Below, piece after piece: positions 5,023 through 41,898 of a stretch of DNA of 48,377 nt. The translations under genes were made by a program, and so were the position numbers. Source of the DNA: Minisyncoccia bacterium (lineage in GTDB: Bacteria; Patescibacteriota; Minisyncoccia; Phycocordibacterales; UBA2100). How positions within the stretch are numbered: position 1 is the first letter of the stretch; each line of letters starts with the position of its first letter. The notes under the pieces are model-generated. The model had not been told where the DNA came from, did not search any database, and was given only the letters and a program-made list of their open reading frames with translations. Location: positions 1-48,377 of the forward strand of contig CBFHTW010000003.1 of NCBI GenBank assembly GCA_965659025.1, read 5' to 3'.

Positions 5023-5738
5023 ACACCCGCGCTGTCTGTGCTCCGGAAATTATTCCCGCACTCCTCTCATCGGAGCTCTCCGGGCTGGTGGCGCGCGCTT
5101 CTGAATGCGCCGCGCTTTCCGCATGGATGCAGGTGGACGTGGTGGACGGCGCATTTGCATCGCCCGCATCGTGGCCTTTTGCCGGAGAAGCGGAAGAGGG
5201 CGAAGTGGCGGATGTGCTTTCGCGTTTGCCGCAGTCTGCTCGCTACGAGGCGCATCTTATGGCCAATGATCCGGAAGTGCTCGCGGGCAATCTTATGCGC
5301 GCCGGATTTTCTCGCATCGTCTTTCATATAGAGTCGTTTTCGGATGTGGAGGCGGCGCGCGCCGCGCTCGGCGCGGCGCGCGCACACGGCGCAGAAGCGG
5401 GCGTCGCCATCAATCTGGACACCCCGCTTTCATCTATTGATACTCTGGTGGACATCTGCGACGTAGTGCAGGTGATGAGCATCGCATCCATCGGCAAGCA
5501 AGGACAACTTTTTGACGACAGGGCACTGCCGCGCATTGAAGAATTGCGCGCGGAGTATCCGGCGCTCACCATCGCGGTAGACGGCGGCATCACCGAGGCC
5601 AATGTAGAAGAAATCGTGCGCGCGGGCGCCGACAGACTAATCGTCGGCTCTTCGCTCTTTGAACAAGACGATGTCGCGCGCACCTACGCGCGCCTGCTTT
5701 CACGCGCACAGGCCGGTTGTGCACCGCGCGTTTCTTAA
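5019..5738 (+). CDS. rpe: Ribulose-phosphate 3-epimerase
   Basis: QVDVVDG, EAHLM, VQVMS, VDGGI and VGS motifs, in a pentose phosphate cluster. Confidence 0.9.
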   Translation: MNTRAVCAPEIIPALLSSELSGLVARASECAALSAWMQVDVVDGAFASPASWPFAGEAEEGEVADVLSRLPQSARYEAHLMANDPEVLAGNLMRAGFSRIVFHIESFSDVEAARAALGAARAHGAEAGVAINLDTPLSSIDTLVDICDVVQVMSIASIGKQGQLFDDRALPRIEELRAEYPALTIAVDGGITEANVEEIVRAGADRLIVGSSLFEQDDVARTYARLLSRAQAGCAPRVS

Positions 5739-5757
5739 ACTCGGATACAATATAGAG

Positions 5758-6618
5758 ATGGAACCGCTTACCGATGCCGACGAAGCGATGCTCGCACAGA
5801 AAGCTGAAGCTATCCGCGAGACGATTGTGCAGATGCTTGTTGCCGCTGGTTCTGGACACACCGCAGGCCCCCTGGGGCTCGCGGATATATTCACAGCATT
5901 GTATTTTCGCGTACTCCGACACGACCCGCGCAATCCAGAATGGGAAGAGAGAGACAGGCTCGTGCTCTCCAACGGACACACTGCGCCGGTGCGCTACGCC
6001 GCGATGGCACACGCGGGATACTTTCCGGTGGAAGAATGTCTGACGCTCAGAAAATTCGGCTCGCGCTTGCAGGGGCATCCCGAGCGCGCCCGTTTGCCCG
6101 GGCTTGAGACGACATCGGGCCCCTTGGGCGAAGGGCTTTCGCAAGCGTCCGGCATGGCATGGGCGGCGCGCGCCGACGGCAAGACACACCGCGTGTACTG
6201 CGTGCTCTCCGACGGCGAACACGACGCGGGTAACACATGGGAGGCGCTCATGTTTGCCGCGGCACAAAGACTCTCCAACCTCACGGTCATCGTGGATCGC
6301 AATAATATCCAGATAGACGGTTTTACGGAGAGCGTGATGCCCCTGGAGCCTTTGCGCGAAAAATATGAATCATTCGGCTGGCACGTGCTAGAGGTAGACG
6401 GACACAACATTCCGCAGATCATTGCGGCGTGTGCAGAGGCAGGGGCTATTCGCGAGCGGCCGACGGCGATTATCGCGCACACGATACCAGGCAAGGGTGT
6501 GCGCGAGATTGAATTTGACTATCGCTGGCATGGCAAACCGCCGAGCCAAGAAGAGGCGGCGCGTTTTTTGAGTCAGTTGCGCACCCTTGGTGGCAAGGTT
6601 GCCGGTGAACATCAATAG
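5758..6618 (+). CDS. tkt: Transketolase N-terminal subunit
   Basis: SGH, LSNGH, LQGHP and TPP motif SDGE..N. Confidence 0.95.
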   Translation: MEPLTDADEAMLAQKAEAIRETIVQMLVAAGSGHTAGPLGLADIFTALYFRVLRHDPRNPEWEERDRLVLSNGHTAPVRYAAMAHAGYFPVEECLTLRKFGSRLQGHPERARLPGLETTSGPLGEGLSQASGMAWAARADGKTHRVYCVLSDGEHDAGNTWEALMFAAAQRLSNLTVIVDRNNIQIDGFTESVMPLEPLREKYESFGWHVLEVDGHNIPQIIAACAEAGAIRERPTAIIAHTIPGKGVREIEFDYRWHGKPPSQEEAARFLSQLRTLGGKVAGEHQ

Positions 6619-6623
6619 TATTT

Positions 6624-7616
6624 ATGCAACACAAAGACATGTATATGCGAGAGGATGTGTGCGCGGCGACAGCGGAGGCGGCCACGCGCGACGGCTTCGG
6701 CGCGGCGCTGGTGGAGCTTGGCGAGCGCGACAGCCGCGTGGTGGTTTTGTGCGCCGATCTCTCCGAGAGCACGCGTACACTCGCGTTTAAGGAGAAGTTT
6801 CCCGAGCGTTTTATAGAAGTGGGCGTTGCCGAACAAAACCTCGCCGCGCTCGCAAGCGGTATCGCCGCCGCAGGGAAGATTCCGTTTATCGCTTCGTATG
6901 CGGTGTTTAGCCCGGGACGCAATTGGGAACAATTGCGCACCAGCGCGGCGCTCAACACTATGCCGGTGAAGATTGCGGGCATGCATGCGGGCGTCTCTGT
7001 GGGGCCCGATGGCGCGACACACCAAGCGCTTGAAGACATATCGCTCATGCGCGTGTTGCCTGGCATGACAGTGCTCTCGCCATGTGACAGTGAAGAGGCG
7101 CGCAAGGCCACGATCGCCGCCGCTTCGCTTGCCGGGCCGGTGTACCTGCGTCTCACTCGCGAAAAGACGCCCGTCATGACTACGCCGCAGACGCCGTTTG
7201 AGATAGGGAAGGTCAATCTATTGTGGAGCGCGGATGCGCCGCAGGTGGTGCTCTGCGCCACGGGGCCTTTGGTGCACCAGGCGCTTTGCGCCGCACGCGC
7301 GCTTGAGGCAGATGGAGTGGGCACGGTGGTGCTAAACGTGCACACGATAAAGCCGCTGGACGAAGAGGGGATTCTTGCGCAGGTGCGCGTGTGCGGCGCG
7401 GTGGTGAGTGTGGAAGAACACCAAATCGCCGGAGGATTGGGCGGCGCGATTGCCGAGCTCTTGGCGCGCCGAGCCCCTGTCCCTATGGAATTTGTAGGCG
7501 TGCAAGACCGCTTCGGGCAGTCCGGCACTCCGGAAGAGCTTTTGGAACATTATGGACTCACCGCGCCGCATATCATTGAAGCGGCGAAGCGCGCGGTTGC
7601 GCGAAAGGGTATGTAG
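6624..7616 (+). CDS. tkt: Transketolase C-terminal subunit
   Basis: ADLSES, GVAEQN, DGATHQ, VEEH and DRFGQSG motifs. Confidence 0.95.
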   Translation: MQHKDMYMREDVCAATAEAATRDGFGAALVELGERDSRVVVLCADLSESTRTLAFKEKFPERFIEVGVAEQNLAALASGIAAAGKIPFIASYAVFSPGRNWEQLRTSAALNTMPVKIAGMHAGVSVGPDGATHQALEDISLMRVLPGMTVLSPCDSEEARKATIAAASLAGPVYLRLTREKTPVMTTPQTPFEIGKVNLLWSADAPQVVLCATGPLVHQALCAARALEADGVGTVVLNVHTIKPLDEEGILAQVRVCGAVVSVEEHQIAGGLGGAIAELLARRAPVPMEFVGVQDRFGQSGTPEELLEHYGLTAPHIIEAAKRAVARKGM

Positions 7617-7620
7617 TAGT

Positions 7621-7732
7621 GCACATAACATATTTGGGTCGCGATTTTTCTGCTGAAAAATCGCTCCGTTTCGCGCGCCCTGCCTGTCGGCAGGCAGGCG
7701 TCGCGCTGCAAAGACCCAAATATGTTATGCGC
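7621..7732. repeat. Structured palindromic element, copy 1 (MITE/REP-like or ncRNA)
   Basis: 20-bp terminal IR 7621-7640/7713-7732 (1 mismatch), inner hairpin GCGATTTTTC-TGCT-GAAAAATCGC, palindrome CCTGCCTGTCGGCAGGCAGG at 7679-7698. Related copy at 41100-41235. Confidence 0.8.
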
Positions 7733-7748
7733 GCTATCTTGTACAGAC

Positions 7749-7785
7749 AAAAAAGAAAGACCCGCAGCACTGTTGCTGCGGGTCT
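7749..7785 (-). terminator. Intrinsic terminator
   Basis: 12-bp stem AGACCCGCAGCA/TGCTGCGGGTCT with an A-tract on the left, downstream of the minus-strand gene. Confidence 0.7.
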
Positions 7786-7800
7786 GTGTTTTGCCTGACT

Positions 7801-8376
7801 TCACCCGGCGGTGGGGAAGGGGGTCGTGCAACCGCGCGTCTCTTGATACGCGGTGTGCCGCCCAAACTGCCCGACGGAAGAGAGTTTCTCAAAGAACTTG
7901 TTTCCGTTCTTGGAGACACCCTGCCCGTCCGTGCGCTTGTAGTAGCGCACACATTGCCATCCCTTCGGCAGAGTGAGCTCGCCCGAGCGCGCTTGCGCGA
8001 TGAGATCGCGCGCGACTGCCTCGGCCTGCGCCCACCTTGCCTTCTCGGAGCGCTTCGTGGCCAGGCGATAGTCCAGCGTCCAGCTGAACTGCTTGTCCGC
8101 GCCGACGATACCGCAAAGTGTCTTTGCGGGAGCGCGTTTGGCCCGGAGTGCGTCGGTGAGACGCGCGAGCGTAATCGTACCGATCAAACGCTGGCTGGAG
8201 GAGTCTTCACCACGGGCTTCGTGGTAGAGATTTTCCGCCAGGCACATCGTCGCCTGCTCTGTGCGCGCATGCACGCGCGCAGTGTAGACGAGCGCGCCCA
8301 AAAACATGAGCGCACCGAAACCGAGTGAGGTGAGTGCCGCGATGCGCGGCAACTTGTCTTTGAACTCAACGAGCAT
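7801..8376 (-). CDS. Cell wall hydrolase (Hydrolase_2, SleB/CwlJ-like), membrane anchored
   Basis: CLAENLYHEARGE, QFSW and GRHTAY motifs, N-terminal TM segment. Confidence 0.8.
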   Translation of the reverse strand: MLVEFKDKLPRIAALTSLGFGALMFLGALVYTARVHARTEQATMCLAENLYHEARGEDSSSQRLIGTITLARLTDALRAKRAPAKTLCGIVGADKQFSWTLDYRLATKRSEKARWAQAEAVARDLIAQARSGELTLPKGWQCVRYYKRTDGQGVSKNGNKFFEKLSSVGQFGRHTAYQETRGCTTPFPTAG

Positions 8377-8470
8377 TTTTTCCTCCTACTCAATACAAAA
8401 AGAGGACCATACCTCTGCGTTCTATTGTATCACAAATTGCAAGAAAGTCAATGTCTAGAAAACCGAGCAA

Positions 8471-9460
8471 TTATGCCACTTTTTCGGCTTTGAAATCGGC
8501 CGGGGCGTGCGTTAGGTGTTGCTCAAGTTCTTCGCGAGTGAGAAGGCCGGCTTGCGCGCCGAGCTTCTGCACCACAAACGCGGCGTTGACGACACCGTGC
8601 AGAAGCGCCTCATGCGCTGGCAGGCCAAGCAACATGTATCCGACGGTGGTGGACGCTGTAGCATCGCCTGCGCCGGTGCGTGAGACGGGCGGTGCGGGAT
8701 CCGGATACACCGGCACGCGCCAGGTACCTTCTTCGCTTTGCACATGCGCGCCGCGTACGCCGTCTGTGATGATGACAGTCTTGGGTCCGAGCGCGCGCAC
8801 GCCTGCGAAAAGCTCCAACACATCGTCCGTTTCTTTTTTTAACACCTGCTTCGCCTCTTCTTTATTGCAGACGAACAGCGTGGTGGCTTGATACACTTCG
8901 GCGAGCGCCTCGGCTCCGGCGAGTATCTGAAACGTGCCTGGCTGAAAGGCGAGATGCACGCCGTTTGCCGCGGCATACCGCGCGACTTCTTTTTGATATT
9001 CCACCGTGTCTTCGCCGAGTGAGGTGAGGTACAGCCATTTGGGCGCTTCGGCAAAACGCGGAAGCATGCGCGGATAGTGTTCGTGTTTGACGAGAATGGT
9101 GCGCTCGGCGCCGTATTGAAGTACGTAGTGGTAGTTGGTCGGGAGGCCTGCATGCACACCCACGAACTCGGTGGCAATGCCCGCGGCGAGCATGGTCTGC
9201 AGGCACGCGCGGCCGTTGTCGTCGTTGCCCATCTCCACTGCCGCGGCGGCAGAGAGGCCGAGGCGCGCGATGGCGGCGGCGGCGTTGGTGGCGTTGCCCA
9301 CGGCGCGCACCTCCGTGGCCGATTCAAATGGGACCTTTTGGCCAAACTTTACACACAACTCGCATTCCTCCGGATTGACATCGCAATGGACCTCCGCCTC
9401 TTTGAGGCGGATAAAGCAATCGGTAACCACGTCGCCAAAGGCAACAACATCGTATCGCAT
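8471..9460 (-). CDS. PfkB family carbohydrate kinase
   Basis: GNATNAA, NKEEA, ITDGVRG and TGAGDA motifs. Confidence 0.9.
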   Translation of the reverse strand: MRYDVVAFGDVVTDCFIRLKEAEVHCDVNPEECELCVKFGQKVPFESATEVRAVGNATNAAAAIARLGLSAAAAVEMGNDDNGRACLQTMLAAGIATEFVGVHAGLPTNYHYVLQYGAERTILVKHEHYPRMLPRFAEAPKWLYLTSLGEDTVEYQKEVARYAAANGVHLAFQPGTFQILAGAEALAEVYQATTLFVCNKEEAKQVLKKETDDVLELFAGVRALGPKTVIITDGVRGAHVQSEEGTWRVPVYPDPAPPVSRTGAGDATASTTVGYMLLGLPAHEALLHGVVNAAFVVQKLGAQAGLLTREELEQHLTHAPADFKAEKVA

Positions 9461-11641: not shown

Positions 11642-11900
11642 GTGGTTTGTTTATTTTCTTCGGCACAGACAGAAGAGATGGTACTACGTAGGTAGTACGA
11701 ATAATCTGATCAGACGACTTGGTGAACATAATGCTGGAAAAGTTAAATCTACAAAAGAGTATAGGCCACTAACGTTGGTTCATGAACTTTCGTTTGATAC
11801 AGAGAGGGAGGCGCGACTTTTTGAGCATAAAGTAAAGAAACAAAGATTGCTAAAAGAGCAAATTATTCGTACTATCGAGAAGCATTGGGGGATCGTCTAA
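11640..11900 (+). CDS. Small stand-alone GIY-YIG nuclease
   Basis: FVYFL..YYVGSTNNLIRRLGEHN..EARLFE. The last codons are encoded by the tRNA 5' end. Confidence 0.88.
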   Translation: MWFVYFLRHRQKRWYYVGSTNNLIRRLGEHNAGKVKSTKEYRPLTLVHELSFDTEREARLFEHKVKKQRLLKEQIIRTIEKHWGIV

Positions 11901-11956
11901 TGGTAGGACATCAGGTTTTGGTCCTGAGTATCGGGGTTCGAGTCCCTGTCCCCCAG
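11886..11956 (+). tRNA. tRNA-Gln(TTG)
   Basis: Acceptor TGGGGGA/TCCCCCA, anticodon arm TCAGG-TTTTGGT-CCTGA, T arm CGGGG-TTCGAGT-CCCTG. CCA not encoded. Confidence 0.95.
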
Positions 11957-20128: not shown

Positions 20129-20147
20129 GTATATTGTGTAGTATACT
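20118..20147 (+). promoter_or_regulatory. Sigma70 promoter of the DGR target gene
   Basis: TTGACA-N18-TATACT. Confidence 0.75.
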
Positions 20148-20304
20148 CGTCCCAAGTTCTTTGACTTTCAACTTGCAGGTTTGCCGCAGCAGAGAGCGGC
20201 CGATATTCGGCCTCCGTCTGCTACGGCAAACCCTCGACCCGAGGGAGCCCGCTGGCACCAATGCGTACTTGTCCGAAAGGGCTCATTCGCAAAGGAGAAA
20301 AACT

Positions 20305-20883
20305 ATGAGCGACCTTACGCTCGATGTTGGTCTTGCCGCCAAACTCAAGGTGGCGTTCGCACGCAACGGCTGGACGGAGCAACTGATTGACGCGGCCTGC
20401 GAAGGCGACAAGCTCGGTCAGTTCAAGCAAGTCCTGCTCGGCCACGCCGCCATCAATGTCGTCGAACACGTCATTGACTGCGACGCGCAACCCTTCGTTC
20501 CCGATGGCTGGTCTGTCGAGGAGCATCAGAAGGGCGGCGCGTTCAAGTGGGACAAAGCAACCCAGAAGGACGCCCTCTACCTCTCGAAAGGTCAGGCGGG
20601 CAGCAAGTACATCGAGGGCAACAAGCTCCGCAAGGAGCTCTCGGACAAGAGCACGCCCGTGCTCAACGCCAACGTCCTCGACTACCTGCTCGCCAACCCG
20701 CACCTCATCCCCGAGGAGTGGAAGGGCAAATACGTCTTCTTCTGGGGGACGGTGTACCGCGGCCGCGGTGGCGGCCTGTACGTCCGCTGCCTCTGCTGGG
20801 GCGACGGCAGGTGGGACTGGAGCGGCGACTGGCTCGGCAGCGGCTTCGACGGCAACGACCCCGCCGCGGTGCGTGCAAGTTGA
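20305..20883 (+). CDS. DGR target protein (192 aa) with C-terminal variable region
   Basis: SD AAGGAG before ATG 20305. The last ~41 codons match TR with adenine-only differences. No signal peptide evident. Confidence 0.92.
   Translation: MSDLTLDVGLAAKLKVAFARNGWTEQLIDAACEGDKLGQFKQVLLGHAAINVVEHVIDCDAQPFVPDGWSVEEHQKGGAFKWDKATQKDALYLSKGQAGSKYIEGNKLRKELSDKSTPVLNANVLDYLLANPHLIPEEWKGKYVFFWGTVYRGRGGGLYVRCLCWGDGRWDWSGDWLGSGFDGNDPAAVRAS
20754..20878 (+). repeat. DGR variable repeat (VR)
   Basis: 125-bp ungapped match to 21201-21325 with 19 mismatches, all opposite TR adenines. Confidence 0.97.
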
Positions 20884-20934
20884 ACTTGGTGCTCTGAACC
20901 TCTGAACCCTTGGGCTCTTGGTTCTTTGCACTTT

Positions 20935-20960
20935 GACCCGCGCTGGAAACGGCGCGGGTC
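20935..20960 (+). other. Post-VR hairpin with GAAA loop (DGR target-recognition element and/or terminator)
   Basis: GACCCGCGCTG-GAAA-CGGCGCGGGTC, ~55 bp after VR. Confidence 0.7.
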
Positions 20961-20967
20961 TTTGCTT

Positions 20968-20976
20968 TGCTATACT
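20968..20976 (+). promoter_or_regulatory. Extended -10 promoter, candidate start of the TR RNA
   Basis: TGCTATACT about 225 bp upstream of TR. Confidence 0.45.
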
Positions 20977-21200
20977 CAAGAAAGGCGGTAGGTGAATACG
21001 CGGGCGATTACGGTTTCCCGCTACCGATGCCAGTGCGCGTACGTCGAGAGCGTTCCCGATTACGGTTTGGAGCGGAGTGGCGCACGAGGCACTCAAAAGT
21101 ATGAAGATACTTGGTGTGGGATGCTATGCGAGTGTAGCTCGCGAATACGATACAACCTCAAGAGTATTCAAGAGGTGGTGGTACGGACGGCATCCCATAC

Positions 21201-21325
21201 GAACCGCAACCGCGATGGCAACCTGTACGTCCGCTACCTCTACTGGAACGACGGCAGGTGGAACTGGAGCAACAACTGGCTCGACAACGACTTCAACGGC
21301 AACAACCCCGCCGCGGTGCGTGCAA
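21201..21325 (+). repeat. DGR template repeat (TR)
   Basis: Adenine-rich copy of VR with 11 AAC codons, followed by hairpin ACCCCGC-TAACT-GCGGGGT at 21341-21359. Confidence 0.97.
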
Positions 21326-21346
21326 CTCTCTTCACTTCTCACCCCG

Positions 21347-21739
21347 CTAACTGCGGGGTTGAGTTTTGGTGAGCTGCCCGCTCCAACCGCCGAGCATCTT
21401 GCCGATTTCCTCCACCTTCAAGGAAAGCAGGCCGTACTTGTTCGTATCAATAGATTTCGTCTCCCACAACACCATCAGGAGCACTTTGAGTGTATCTGTC
21501 TTTCGTATCGCTGCGCGGACGTAGGGGCGTTTTTCCTCTCGCGAGAGAAAACTCGCCGATGCTATCATTTCCATAATCTCAATGAACAATGTATCTATAC
21601 GCTGACCGAGTGAGTGCCTATGGAGTTTGGGCAGTATTTGATAGAACGCGTACCACTGGAGGTACGCCGCTTTCACGCTCTGTAAAAGAGGCAAGAGCTT
21701 CGGGGGGGGGGTAGATTTATGGCTATCAAACTCGCTCAT
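21347..21739 (-). CDS. avd: DGR accessory variability determinant (Avd-like four-helix bundle), opposite strand
   Basis: 130 aa, basic, LPK..R..LG..I and EIGKMLGGW motifs. Start placed at ATG 21739. Confidence 0.85.
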   Translation of the reverse strand: MSEFDSHKSTPPPKLLPLLQSVKAAYLQWYAFYQILPKLHRHSLGQRIDTLFIEIMEMIASASFLSREEKRPYVRAAIRKTDTLKVLLMVLWETKSIDTNKYGLLSLKVEEIGKMLGGWSGQLTKTQPRS

Positions 21740-22720
21740 TCCTACGAGAGTATCATCTCGCTGGATAATCTCCTCGAAGCGTGGTGTGAGTTTGTGCGCG
21801 GCAAGAGAAAGCGGAAAGATGTGCAAGAGTTCGAGCTTCGCTTGATGGATAACGTCCTCTCACTCCACAGGGATTTACGCGAAAAGACCTACACCCATTC
21901 TGACTACGAGGCGTTTAGCATCTCCGACCCTAAACCGCGCAACATACATAAAGCGAGTGTGCGCGACCGTCTCCTTCATCACGCGATTTACCGTCTGCTA
22001 TATCCGTTCTTCGACAAGGGTTTCGTGGGAAGTTCGTACTCGTGCAGAAAGAGTAAGGGCACGCATAAAGCGATTGAGCACTTTCAGCAGCTCGCGTATA
22101 GCGCATCTCATAATCACACGCGCACTGTGTGGGTGCTGAAATGCGACGTGCGTAAGTTCTTTGCATCCATAGACCAAGAGCGTCTTCTGCGGATACTCGA
22201 GACGCGCATACCAGACAGCGAAGTACTTTGGCTTCTCGGGCAAATCGTACGCAGCTTCGAGAGTACGGGAACGGGCTTCGGCTTGCCCCTCGGGAACCTG
22301 ACCTCGCAGCTCCTCGTGAATATCTATATGAACGAGTTTGACCAGTTCGTGAAGCACACGCTCAAATCGAAGGCCTATGTGCGATACGCGGACGATTTCG
22401 TACTCCTATCTCGAGACAGGGCAGAACTTGAGCAGCAACTCCCGCGCATCGAGGCGTTTCTTTGGGACGAGCTGCGGCTTACGCTCCACCCCGACAAAGT
22501 GTTCATCAAAACGCTGGCGTCAGGCGTGGACTTTCTCGGGTGGGTGCATTTCCCTGACCATCGCGTTGTCCGTACGACCACCAAGCGTCGTATGCATCGC
22601 CGTCTCGAGCAGATGGAGTGGAAGGAACAGAGCGTCCAGTCGTATCTTGGCCTCTTGAGCCACGGTAATGCGGCGAAGCTACAGCAGCGGATTAGGCGGC
22701 AGCAAGCAGCTCGGGAATAG
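21719..22720 (+). CDS. DGR reverse transcriptase
   Basis: RDRLLHHA, KCDVRKFF, GLPLGNLTSQ (DGR-type GxxxSQ), YVRYADD and DFLG motifs. No maturase or endonuclease extension. Confidence 0.96.
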   Translation: MAIKLAHSYESIISLDNLLEAWCEFVRGKRKRKDVQEFELRLMDNVLSLHRDLREKTYTHSDYEAFSISDPKPRNIHKASVRDRLLHHAIYRLLYPFFDKGFVGSSYSCRKSKGTHKAIEHFQQLAYSASHNHTRTVWVLKCDVRKFFASIDQERLLRILETRIPDSEVLWLLGQIVRSFESTGTGFGLPLGNLTSQLLVNIYMNEFDQFVKHTLKSKAYVRYADDFVLLSRDRAELEQQLPRIEAFLWDELRLTLHPDKVFIKTLASGVDFLGWVHFPDHRVVRTTTKRRMHRRLEQMEWKEQSVQSYLGLLSHGNAAKLQQRIRRQQAARE

Positions 22721-40770: not shown

Positions 40771-41091
40771 ATGGAACGCGACCAGCAGTTTTTGGAATAT
40801 GTAGTGAAGGCGCTCGTGGAGCACCCGGAAGACGTGCAGATCAATCGCACGATAGACGAGATGGGTGTATTGCTCACACTCAAGGTGCACCAGGACGACA
40901 TGGGCAAGATCATTGGTAAAAGCGGCGCGACCGCAAAAGCGATTCGCACTGTATTGCGCGTGGTGGGTATGAAGAACGACGCGCGTGTCAATCTCAAGAT
41001 TGAAGAGCCGGAGGGTGCCGACATGGACCGCTCTGTGCCGAAGATTGATCGCACGGTTGAAGACGTTATTGCTGATTTGAAGGCGGAGTAA
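40771..41091 (+). CDS. khpA: KH-domain RNA-binding protein
   Basis: DMGKIIGKSGATAKAIR, located after rpsP. Confidence 0.92.
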   Translation: MERDQQFLEYVVKALVEHPEDVQINRTIDEMGVLLTLKVHQDDMGKIIGKSGATAKAIRTVLRVVGMKNDARVNLKIEEPEGADMDRSVPKIDRTVEDVIADLKAE

Positions 41092-41099
41092 CCATCTTC

Positions 41100-41235
41100 G
41101 TGACCTCCGAATGTTTTTGGGTACGGAATTTTTCTGCTGAAAAATTCCTCCATCCTCACGCTCTGCCTGCCCTGCATGCGCAGGCATGGCAGACAGGCGT
41201 CGCGTTGCGGAGTCCCAAAAACACTCGGTGGTCAC
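41100..41235. repeat. Structured palindromic element, copy 2
   Basis: Outer IR GTGACC..TGTTTTTGGG / CCCAAAAACA..GGTCAC, inner GGAATTTTTC-TGCT-GAAAAATTCC, CTGCCTGCC..GGCAGACAGG then CGTCGCG as in copy 1. Confidence 0.8.
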
Positions 41236-41262
41236 TTATATGGTAGATATGACGACATGCAT

Positions 41263-41898
41263 ATGATTCACTTCCACATCATCACATTGTTTCCAGACTC
41301 AATTGAGCCGTATTTGCACAGCTCTATCATTGGCCGCGCGCTCAAGGAAAAAAAGGCGAAGATTTCTTTTTATAACCCAAAAGATTTTACGAATGATGCC
41401 CATGCGCGCGTAGACAGGCGGCCATACGGCGGGGGGCCGGGTATGGTGCTGGAACCGGAGGCGGTACTTCGGGCCGCCAAGAAAGCCATCGGCACTCGTA
41501 AGGCGGAAGTGATCTTCTTTTCTCCCGGAGGCAAGCAGTTTGACGAAGCAACTGCTAAGAAACTTTCCAAAAAGAAAGACGTTGTGTGTATCTGTGGGCA
41601 CTATGAAGGAGTGGATGCGCGAGTGGAAAAGATACTCAAAGCGAAGGGTGTGTCCGTAGGGCCGTTCGTGCTCACCGGCGGTGAATTGCCGGCGGCGCTT
41701 ATTGCGGATGCAACATTGCGTTTTGTGCCTGGCGTACTCGGCAAGGCGGAGTCGCTGGAAGGTGCGCGCGTATCCGCGCACGATGTGTACACTCGGCCCG
41801 AGGTGCTGGTATGGAAAGGGAAGAAGTATCGTGTGCCTAAGGTGCTTCTCTCGGGTAACCACGCGAAGATAGAGGAGTGGAAAAAGAAACATTCATAA
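41263..41898 (+). CDS. trmD: tRNA (guanine37-N1)-methyltransferase
   Basis: ITLFP, VDRRPYGGGPGM, CGHYEGVD, VLTGGELPA and LLSGNHAKI motifs. Confidence 0.96.
   Translation: MIHFHIITLFPDSIEPYLHSSIIGRALKEKKAKISFYNPKDFTNDAHARVDRRPYGGGPGMVLEPEAVLRAAKKAIGTRKAEVIFFSPGGKQFDEATAKKLSKKKDVVCICGHYEGVDARVEKILKAKGVSVGPFVLTGGELPAALIADATLRFVPGVLGKAESLEGARVSAHDVYTRPEVLVWKGKKYRVPKVLLSGNHAKIEEWKKKHS

Follow-up and report, generated by a model that had tools for sequence, protein, structure and literature searches.

The window analysed here, 48,377 nucleotides long, belongs to an assembly of 533,332 bases in 39 contigs that is estimated to be 88.9% complete (referred to as G000; other G-numbers denote related genomes, L-numbers loci and C-numbers contigs). 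A first-pass annotation had described the same structured architecture at two places in the window, 7621–7732 and 41100–41235, and all of the parts that it listed are present in the sequence where it placed them. Further copies were first found by short-word BLAST, and two covariance models were then built, R1 from seven G000 copies and R2 from 74 copies in other genomes. The two copies in the window (copies A and B) and their surroundings contain the following features.

6624–7616, + strand: C-terminal half of transketolase, upstream of copy A (Pfam Transket_pyr, 1.8e-43; Transketolase_C, 1.3e-24)
7617–7736, + strand in the first-pass annotation, - strand as the better-folding strand of the family: copy A, whole hairpin element, 120 nt (R1, E 1.3e-26; R2, E 4.4e-18)
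7617–7640: copy A, left arm of the closing stem, directly after the tkt stop codon, pairs with 7713–7736 (fold and sequence)
7641–7664: copy A, hairpin 1, 10-bp stem with loop TGCT at 7651–7654 (sequence and fold)
7672–7709: copy A, hairpin 2, short GC stem, then CGTC; the loop holds the nested palindrome 7680–7698 (sequence and fold)
7680–7698: copy A, nested palindrome CTGCCTG-TCGG-CAGGCAGG, a separate repeat family of G000 with solo copies elsewhere
7699–7709: copy A, CGTCGCGCTGC (sequence)
7713–7736: copy A, right arm (sequence and fold)
7758–7785: two-way intrinsic-terminator-like hairpin, 22 nt beyond copy A, 12 pairs, T runs after the stem on both strands
40771–41091, + strand: khpA, upstream of copy B (Pfam KH_KhpA-B, 1.1e-21)
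41100–41235: copy B, whole hairpin element, 136 nt, in the khpA/trmD spacer (R1, E 4.4e-19)
41100–41124 and 41212–41235: copy B, arms (sequence)
41125–41148: copy B, hairpin 1 with loop TGCT at 41135–41138 (sequence and fold)
41163–41197: copy B, nested palindrome, itself with a second palindromic insert at 41170–41189 (sequence, fold and BLAST)
41198–41208: copy B, CGTCGCGTTGC (sequence)
41257–41898, + strand: trmD, downstream of copy B (Pfam tRNA_m1G_MT, 1.4e-43)

Both copies start near a stop codon on the strand of the upstream gene, as had been noted: copy A 0–4 nt past the ORF of the transketolase C-terminal half and copy B 8 nt past khpA, while 21 nt separate the end of copy B from trmD. 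The transketolase upstream of copy A is split over two adjacent ORFs, an N-terminal thiamine-diphosphate-binding half (5659–6618) and the C-terminal pyrimidine-binding half (6624–7616). On the other side, the terminator-like hairpin at 7758–7785 lies between copy A and a convergent gene at 7801–8376. A promoter and terminator scan of the flanks found no consensus promoter beside copy A or copy B, and neither copy was itself called as a terminator.

Aligned with each other, the copies have a mean column identity of 77%, and the two base pairs by which their hairpin-1 stems differ are both compensated, as had been claimed. As RNA, the + strands of both copies fold with a minimum free energy (MFE) of -72.9 kcal/mol (z = -9.8 for copy A and z = -10.3 for copy B, equalled by 0 of 200 shuffles in each case), and the - strands reach -72.5 kcal/mol (z -11.4) and -78.0 kcal/mol, respectively. 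With DNA parameters copy A gives -45.8 kcal/mol (z = -9.5). Judged by these z-scores and by the E-values of the covariance models, the resemblance of copies A and B exceeds chance.

A hairpin family in small-genome Patescibacteria

Building a covariance model from the copies, the check proposed with the annotation, led to further loci both in G000 and in its relatives. The element had been described as present twice; R1 and R2 searches of the contigs showed that G000 holds ten full-length and three partial loci.

Full-length G000 loci, + strand (R1/R2): C3:7617, C3:41100, C4:31541, C30:48, C5:17859 and C23:3366
Full-length G000 loci, - strand (R1/R2): C31:758, C25:6177, C1:15290 and C1:21039
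Partial G000 loci (R1/R2): C12:1–67 (contig end), C3:49284 and a truncated copy near C1:15230

The core of the family consists of a variable closing stem, hairpin 1 with the loop TGCT (sometimes TACT or CGCT; AGCA on the other strand), a short linker starting with CTC, and hairpin 2 with a 4–5-bp GC stem and the loop CGTC (variants CAGTC and CGAC). The closing stem is about 20 to more than 30 bp long, is free in sequence with its pairing kept, and is capped by a conserved three-way junction. In the copy on C5 the stem of hairpin 1 is wholly different and GC-rich with an unchanged TGCT loop, and the stem of hairpin 2 covaries too in copies of G055. The element measures 97–103 nt in other genomes, across 36–62% G+C, and 100–140 nt family-wide.

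Of the shared architecture that had been proposed, the arms and the two hairpins hold up as parts of the family, but the CTGCCTG..CAGGCAGG palindrome does not belong to its core. This palindrome is found in the hairpin-2 loop of seven of the ten full-length and all three partial G000 copies, is lacking in three full copies, and occurs alone on six other G000 contigs (C23, C1, C24, C12, C6 and C10). It is missing from the element in other genomes, where hairpin 2 has a 4–5-nt loop. It is therefore a short repeat of its own, nested in the loops of hairpins. Other inserts occur in the hairpin-2 loop as well, of 57 nt in G019 and of 26 nt in G211.

Among 60 relatives of the same family and order, with genomes of 0.4–1.3 Mb, full-length R1 matches were found in ten, with 1 to 21 copies each, and two further relatives match the palindrome part only. 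R2 counts 34 copies in G055 and 20 in the congeneric G211. In an even sample of the phylum, 2 of 150 genomes carry the element (R2, stricter filters). A search with a degenerate pattern, one genome per species, matched more than 121 stretches; among the matches listed, 80 loci were fetched and 74 of these were confirmed by R1. The assemblies behind the 74 confirmed loci, again among the matches listed, are labelled Patescibacteria, Parcubacteria-group lineages, ‘uncultured Saccharibacteria’ or plain ‘bacterium’. Three pattern matches among those listed, labelled Planctomycetota, Terriglobia and Udaeobacter, were not confirmed by R1. The core pattern had no match in 2.9 million viral contigs.

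The first-pass annotation could not assign the element to a known family, and the searches bear this out. Against Rfam 15, the only match in the whole window at gathering thresholds was a tRNA at 11886–11956, and 13 element loci (five of G000 and eight foreign sites) gave no match at E ≤ 1. For 7400–7900 of the window, 13 weak matches at E ≤ 10 all lie far below gathering, the best with 25.2 bits against a cut-off of 49. With no Rfam family matching, the element does not coincide with an already described family of that catalogue. The self-cleaving ribozymes in Rfam (hammerhead, twister, twister-sister, pistol and hatchet) did not match either, and inspection of the junction by eye revealed no hammerhead core motifs on either strand. 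A full-text literature search with term look-ups, which covered bioRxiv preprints by their main text, returned no description of the element. Copies A and B are thus members of an undescribed hairpin family in small-genome Patescibacteria of the Parcubacteria/Paceibacteria type.

The genomes of Patescibacteria rank among the smallest and most streamlined of all bacteria, and little is known of the non-coding elements in this group. With up to 34 diverged copies in a 0.8-Mb genome, the element makes up as much as about 0.5% of the DNA; at such a share of a streamlined genome it either does something for the cell or persists unusually effectively.

Pairing, preferred strand and shared sites

The annotation's claim of a structure conserved over sequence finds strong support. 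RNAalifold predicted 50 pairs from the seven G000 copies, 27 of which have changes on both sides that keep the pairing; for the 74 foreign copies 30 of 32 predicted pairs are compensated. In the wide alignment all seven pairs of the upper stem of hairpin 1 covary around a conserved loop. Under the model structure 91.1% of the cells of the 74 copies are paired, compared to 63.1% after shuffling and 42–47% when the partner is slid by 1–3 columns. The covariation score is 0.597 vs. 0.132 for shuffled alignments, and none of 500 shuffles reaches the observed values; all of these figures come from a wide alignment that was itself fitted to the model. The 74 copies were picked by a pattern that covers part of hairpins 1 and 2 and none of the arms, so the sequence conservation seen in the two hairpins is partly by construction.

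Pairing continues beyond the ends of the model, by at least six columns in 34 of the 74 copies and by at least ten in 21. The arms themselves are close to random between copies, with an identity of 0.56–0.58 vs. 0.46–0.48 for shuffled arms, and the identity of the core is 0.67–0.80. Three readings of the sequence were tried and rejected. TC...TC ends, considered as a 2-bp duplication or a tandem G.A motif, occur in just 13 of 97 copies and are at most a subfamily trait; hairpin 1 as the operator of a dimeric DNA-binding protein is ruled out by a stem that covaries to GC-rich versions; and coding potential was rejected by eye, from the 1–2-nt indels between copies and the freely varying arms.

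In 84 of 97 distinct copies the better fold is that of the reverse complement of the annotated strand (Wilcoxon p = 5e-14), with a mean MFE of -51.5 kcal/mol for the complement vs. -47.0 kcal/mol. The mismatches in the arms point the same way. Among 1922 aligned arm positions 1695 are Watson-Crick pairs, and on the annotated strand A.C mismatches outnumber G.U pairs (82 vs. 21) and pyrimidine-pyrimidine mismatches outnumber purine-purine ones (109 vs. 15). Read on the complement strand, the same mismatches are G.U and purine-purine ones, the kinds that disturb a stem least. In all four classes of gene context the bias points in one direction (17 vs. 4 where only the left side has a gene 3' end, 15 vs. 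1 where only the right side does), so it belongs to the element itself rather than to the transcription of its neighbour. Across the family, the better-folding strand is thus the complement of the annotated one, whatever the direction of the neighbouring gene. An unknown mutation bias could in principle be the source of this asymmetry.

Nine of the ten G000 copies examined lie 0–21 nt from the stop codon of a neighbour, and the last one (C30) is interrupted by the end of its contig. Six point the same way as the gene upstream (tkt, khpA, CCA-adding enzyme, HAD hydrolase, uracil-DNA glycosylase and rpoC) and three lie in the opposite sense, behind recR, a CarboxypepD_reg protein and a 349-aa ORF with no Pfam match. 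For the 74 wide-sample copies, where 400-nt flanks, crude ORF calls and a limit of 60 nt were used, a gene 3' end adjoins on the left only in 18, on the right only in 15, on both sides (convergent genes) in 22 and on neither in 19. In G055, 11 copies follow a co-oriented gene, five follow an opposite one, seven lie between convergent and four between divergent genes. From these counts the element prefers gene 3' ends and is not bound to one orientation. The rule that copies share the orientation of the upstream gene accordingly applies to copies A and B but fails for the family (6 vs. 3 in G000, 18 vs. 15 in the wide sample).

Several of these sites are shared between genera. Fourteen flanking proteins of G000 were compared by tblastn with 138 foreign element loci, and khpA was searched for in the 60 relatives. 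The element follows the C-terminal transketolase gene in both G000 and G033, and it lies behind rpoC in G000 (a partial copy) and at L115. Between khpA and trmD it was found in G000 and also in G025, G033 and G019 (3 of 29 khpA loci scanned). This site is filled in three genomes of genus g5 and empty in G004, where the spacer is 16 nt. The khpA–trmD spacers of G036 (L063) and G029 (L064) contain other, unrelated long hairpins made of short tandem words. When the congeners G055 and G211 are compared, the alignment runs through the element, or as far as its edge, at five loci, and a sixth locus holds a diverged copy that the model had not listed.

Eight comparisons of orthologous copies could be made, five between G211 and G055 and three among the khpA copies of g5, which are not independent of each other. 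Of 137 changed pairs 94 were altered on both sides and still pair, six still pair via G-U, and 37 are broken in one or both copies; a further 154 pairs are unchanged and 21 are gapped. In contigs of four sequencing runs covering 6900–8500 the element is present in related strains, with no joint and no empty site. Read depth in the runs over this region has a spike at 7602–7709, as expected for a repeat.

Mobile repeat, RNA element or folded-DNA site

The only clean burst of copies was found in G025, where 16 of 20 copies are nearly identical and lie within a ~155-nt palindromic unit that is longer than the element and has common ends. This unit is flanked by a CTAG/TTAG (YTAR) duplication, and its site is empty in G019 and G033 (L044–L060, e.g., L044:1172–1328). 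The burst is an ordinary MITE with the element as an inner passenger. The search for empty sites, also suggested with the annotation, succeeded for this MITE burst only; the G055 locus checked instead had a diverged orthologous copy in G211. At a second locus the sole G211 match extending past the element lies at the start of a contig. No constant terminal repeats or target duplications were seen at the ends of the element itself in 97 copies, and the sequences outside the arms are not conserved across copies. In G055, groups of copies at different loci have common inner arms and differ in their outer pairing (e.g., L268/L271/L274/L284/L286 and L294/L299). On contig C1 of G055 the orientations are six to six, and there is hence no replication-strand bias of the kind known for single-stranded DNA transposons.

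Y1 transposase, reverse transcriptase and TnpB were considered as partner enzymes; none has a convincing link to the element among the 60 relatives, a sample of low power for gene co-occurrence, and no mobilising enzyme was found. Y1 transposase (PF01797) was not detected in G000 (88.9% complete) or in G055 (95% complete, 34 copies). Among the relatives the Y1 domain occurs in 8 of 10 with the element and in 26 of 50 without it, and no element lies within 1.5 kb of the six Y1 loci examined. Reverse transcriptase was found in 5 of 10 relatives with the element and in 12 of 50 without it, the other five element-bearing relatives being those where it was not found. TnpB was absent from the five genomes searched.

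The first-pass annotation had named a multi-stem ncRNA, a 3' UTR element and a non-autonomous mobile element as candidates. Our leading interpretation, a tentative one by analogy with REPINs, is a resident hairpin repeat that acts as a folded single strand. Such an element would be non-autonomous, would occupy gaps just 3' of genes and would mostly be inherited vertically at fixed sites, with new copies arising occasionally when whole hairpins are copied to new sites. Its active form would be the folded single strand, possibly ssDNA, that is complementary to the annotated one, and a putative partner protein may recognise this strand through the junction and the loops. Selection on the fold, templated correction from arm to arm, or a combination of the two could keep the arms complementary and let them grow outward as far as the gene borders. 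As a by-product, transcripts that run through a copy would acquire a long double-stranded stem.

We counted the groups of G055 copies with shared arms, the patchy distribution and the empty khpA–trmD site of G004 for multiplication; that the element is mobile on its own we infer. The sites behind the C-terminal transketolase gene, between khpA and trmD and behind rpoC, together with the six loci shared by G211 and G055 and the 94 of 137 changed pairs that are altered on both sides, were counted for persistence at fixed sites. The 84 of 97 reverse-strand folds, the mismatch bias and the lack of an adjoining promoter were counted for a single strand that is intrinsic to the element. Against a REPIN-like repeat we counted that no mobilising enzyme was found, the lack of constant ends and target duplications, the passenger status of the element in the G025 burst, the balanced orientations on C1 of G055 and the mutation bias that might underlie the asymmetry; long retention at the same site with a fully kept fold would also fit a host function equally well.

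REP/REPIN-RAYT systems consist of a short palindrome of 20–40 nt, nearly identical between copies and with a GTAG or CGTC tag at one end, and of a cognate Y1 (RAYT) gene in the same genome that is usually flanked by the repeat. They are among the closest known systems. Like the element, they are multi-copy extragenic hairpins behind genes, occur in both orientations, fold as a single strand and persist vertically with copy numbers that vary widely between genomes. CGTC is also present in the hairpin-2 loop of the element and after the nested palindrome of G000. Unlike REP/REPIN repeats, the element is three times longer (97–140 nt), has a three-way junction and has arms that differ between copies; there is no cognate Y1 (RAYT) gene in G000 or G055, and none of the Y1 genes examined is flanked by the element. 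REP and REPIN repeats are the subject of Bertels and Rainey (2011, PMC3116915) and Di Nocera (2013, PMC3733652).

Other repeats can be compared with it as well. The repeats bcr1–bcr18 of the Bacillus cereus group are structured and dispersed too, and compensatory changes are said to preserve the predicted fold of some of them; their hosts and architecture differ. Correia/NEMIS of Neisseria and ERIC of enterobacteria are long-hairpin MITEs, whose copies share terminal repeats and have target duplications. They resemble the element in having 100–155 nt, in forming a hairpin over the whole length and in being intergenic and transcribed within neighbouring mRNAs. The element differs from such a MITE in its near-random arms (0.56–0.58 vs. 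0.46–0.48 shuffled) and in having no constant end or duplication. Two reviews deal with MITEs (PMC10969869 and PMC3184786). Hairpin-forming repeats of sponge mitochondria (PMC2800124) are likewise repeat families that invade the intergenic regions of compact genomes, in different hosts and on a different scale.

The main rival, to which we give a lower probability, is a cis-acting RNA element of transcript 3' ends. The stem, together with a protein-bound junction, would stop transcription, block 3' exonucleases or provide an RNase III cut, and might uncouple neighbouring genes as REP sequences do in Escherichia coli. The position of the copies suits this explanation: the 9 of 10 G000 copies close to stop codons are matched in the wide sample by 55 of 74 copies that have the 3' end of a gene no more than 60 nt away on one side or both, 22 of them between convergent genes. 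Most G055 copies also have an A run and a T run at their borders, as two-way terminators do, and the element is conserved at operon-internal sites such as khpA–trmD and behind rpoC. Fully compensated change at fixed sites is what one would expect of selection on an RNA fold. Yet the mismatch asymmetry follows the element's own orientation and not the direction of the neighbouring gene, and a folding signal on the opposite strand makes it less likely that the upstream gene simply has the element as its 3' UTR, which is one of the readings offered with the annotation. G.U intermediates are scarce on the co-transcribed strand (6 vs. 94 double changes). Several copies (copy A and those at L275, L277, L290 and L291) adjoin a separate, ordinary terminator. 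A role as a plain hairpin needs no conserved junction, and only about 12 of roughly 550 G000 genes carry a copy, while 50 of the 60 relatives have none. As for an intrinsic (Rho-independent) terminator, which has a GC-rich stem with a U tract directly after it, the observations point both ways: the scan called neither window copy, A and T runs adjoin many copies in G055, and the first flank bases in the wide sample are only about one-third T.

It is also conceivable, though we consider it doubtful, that the element is a new single-stranded nucleic-acid machine of Patescibacteria, an RNA gene or a folded-DNA site, with long, perfectly paired arms, different at each locus, that a dedicated copying mechanism rather than ordinary compensatory mutation would generate and maintain. 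It would then be either a structured RNA, protein-bound or self-cleaving, made from the strand opposite to the annotated one, or a folded-DNA site for a putative recombinase or nuclease.

Independent RNA genes on the complement strand, as protein-binding small RNAs or a new self-cleaving ribozyme with many diverged paralogues, are improbable in our estimate. Conserved loops and a conserved junction among freely covarying stems are a hallmark of functional RNA, and the strand asymmetry intrinsic to the element, its constant size of ~97–103 nt across 36–62% G+C and the lack of matches to known families would all fit such genes. What counts against them is that no conserved promoter was found and that the flanks outside the arms are variable, so that an RNA including both arms must start in variable flanking DNA; nearly pure Watson-Crick arms of 20–30 bp would also be unusual in RNA genes.

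Of the explanations named, the one to which we give the lowest probability is that the folded DNA serves as a recombination site of the attC type known from integrons, or as some other DNA-level signal of the host for which a single-strand hairpin is required. Integron attC sites have conserved R and L end boxes and stand in tandem cassettes beside an integrase. The element has in common with them the position behind stop codons, a variable sequence and length with the fold rather than the sequence conserved, and one strand that folds better; its hairpin-2 loop is moreover a recurrent site of nested inserts in G000, G211 and G019. Against this, the copies are found behind housekeeping genes spread over at least eight contigs and form no cassette arrays, the conserved part is the internal junction with no conserved end boxes in 97 copies, and the same sites are occupied across genera, unlike shuffling cassettes. 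We thus rank the REPIN-like repeat first, followed by the cis-acting 3'-end element, the RNA gene or ribozyme and the attC-like site, with the remaining probability going to none of these.

The element has kept an elaborate fold in place from genus to genus, and no catalogued RNA family corresponds to it. Since a covariance model is available, along with orthologous pairs by the dozen and a clear prediction of the strand, the question of RNA versus DNA becomes directly testable.

Nested palindromes and other observations

The window's own reverse transcriptase was rejected as a partner of the element, as it belongs to an ordinary diversity-generating retroelement. This retroelement is complete (20134–22720), with a target ORF (20134–20883), a variable repeat (20756–20878), a template repeat (21203–21325) and the reverse transcriptase ORF (21719–22720; RVT_1, 3e-23). 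The differences between the two repeats are all at template adenines (A to G). Y1-domain ORFs of ~220–280 aa were found in 34 of the 60 tiny relatives, with up to six per genome, which was unexpected for streamlined genomes.

The element loci also reveal a second phenomenon, in which short palindromes repeatedly nest in hairpin loops. These are GC-rich (CCTGCCTG-CCGG or CG-CAGGCAGG, often followed by CGTC) and nest in each other as well; they were seen at 7680–7698, 41163–41197 and loci L008–L016 of G000. The palindrome family may be a CGTC-tagged REP-like repeat, and it is separate from the element that hosts it. No Y1 transposase was found in the G000 assembly.

Two solo palindromes are located at the T-loop position of tRNA-like fragments adjoining tRNA-Pro genes. 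These 3' fragments, which ARAGORN did not call, lie at about 330–390 of L008 (C12) and about 370–480 of L009 (C10). From their sequence they look like leftover ends of duplicated tRNAs into which the palindrome was inserted later. At C1:15060–15440 of G000 a full copy of the element is followed by a truncated second copy with the palindrome, and the region is bracketed by a 28-nt direct repeat from the right arm of the first copy. This arrangement suggests a local duplication or a nested insertion.
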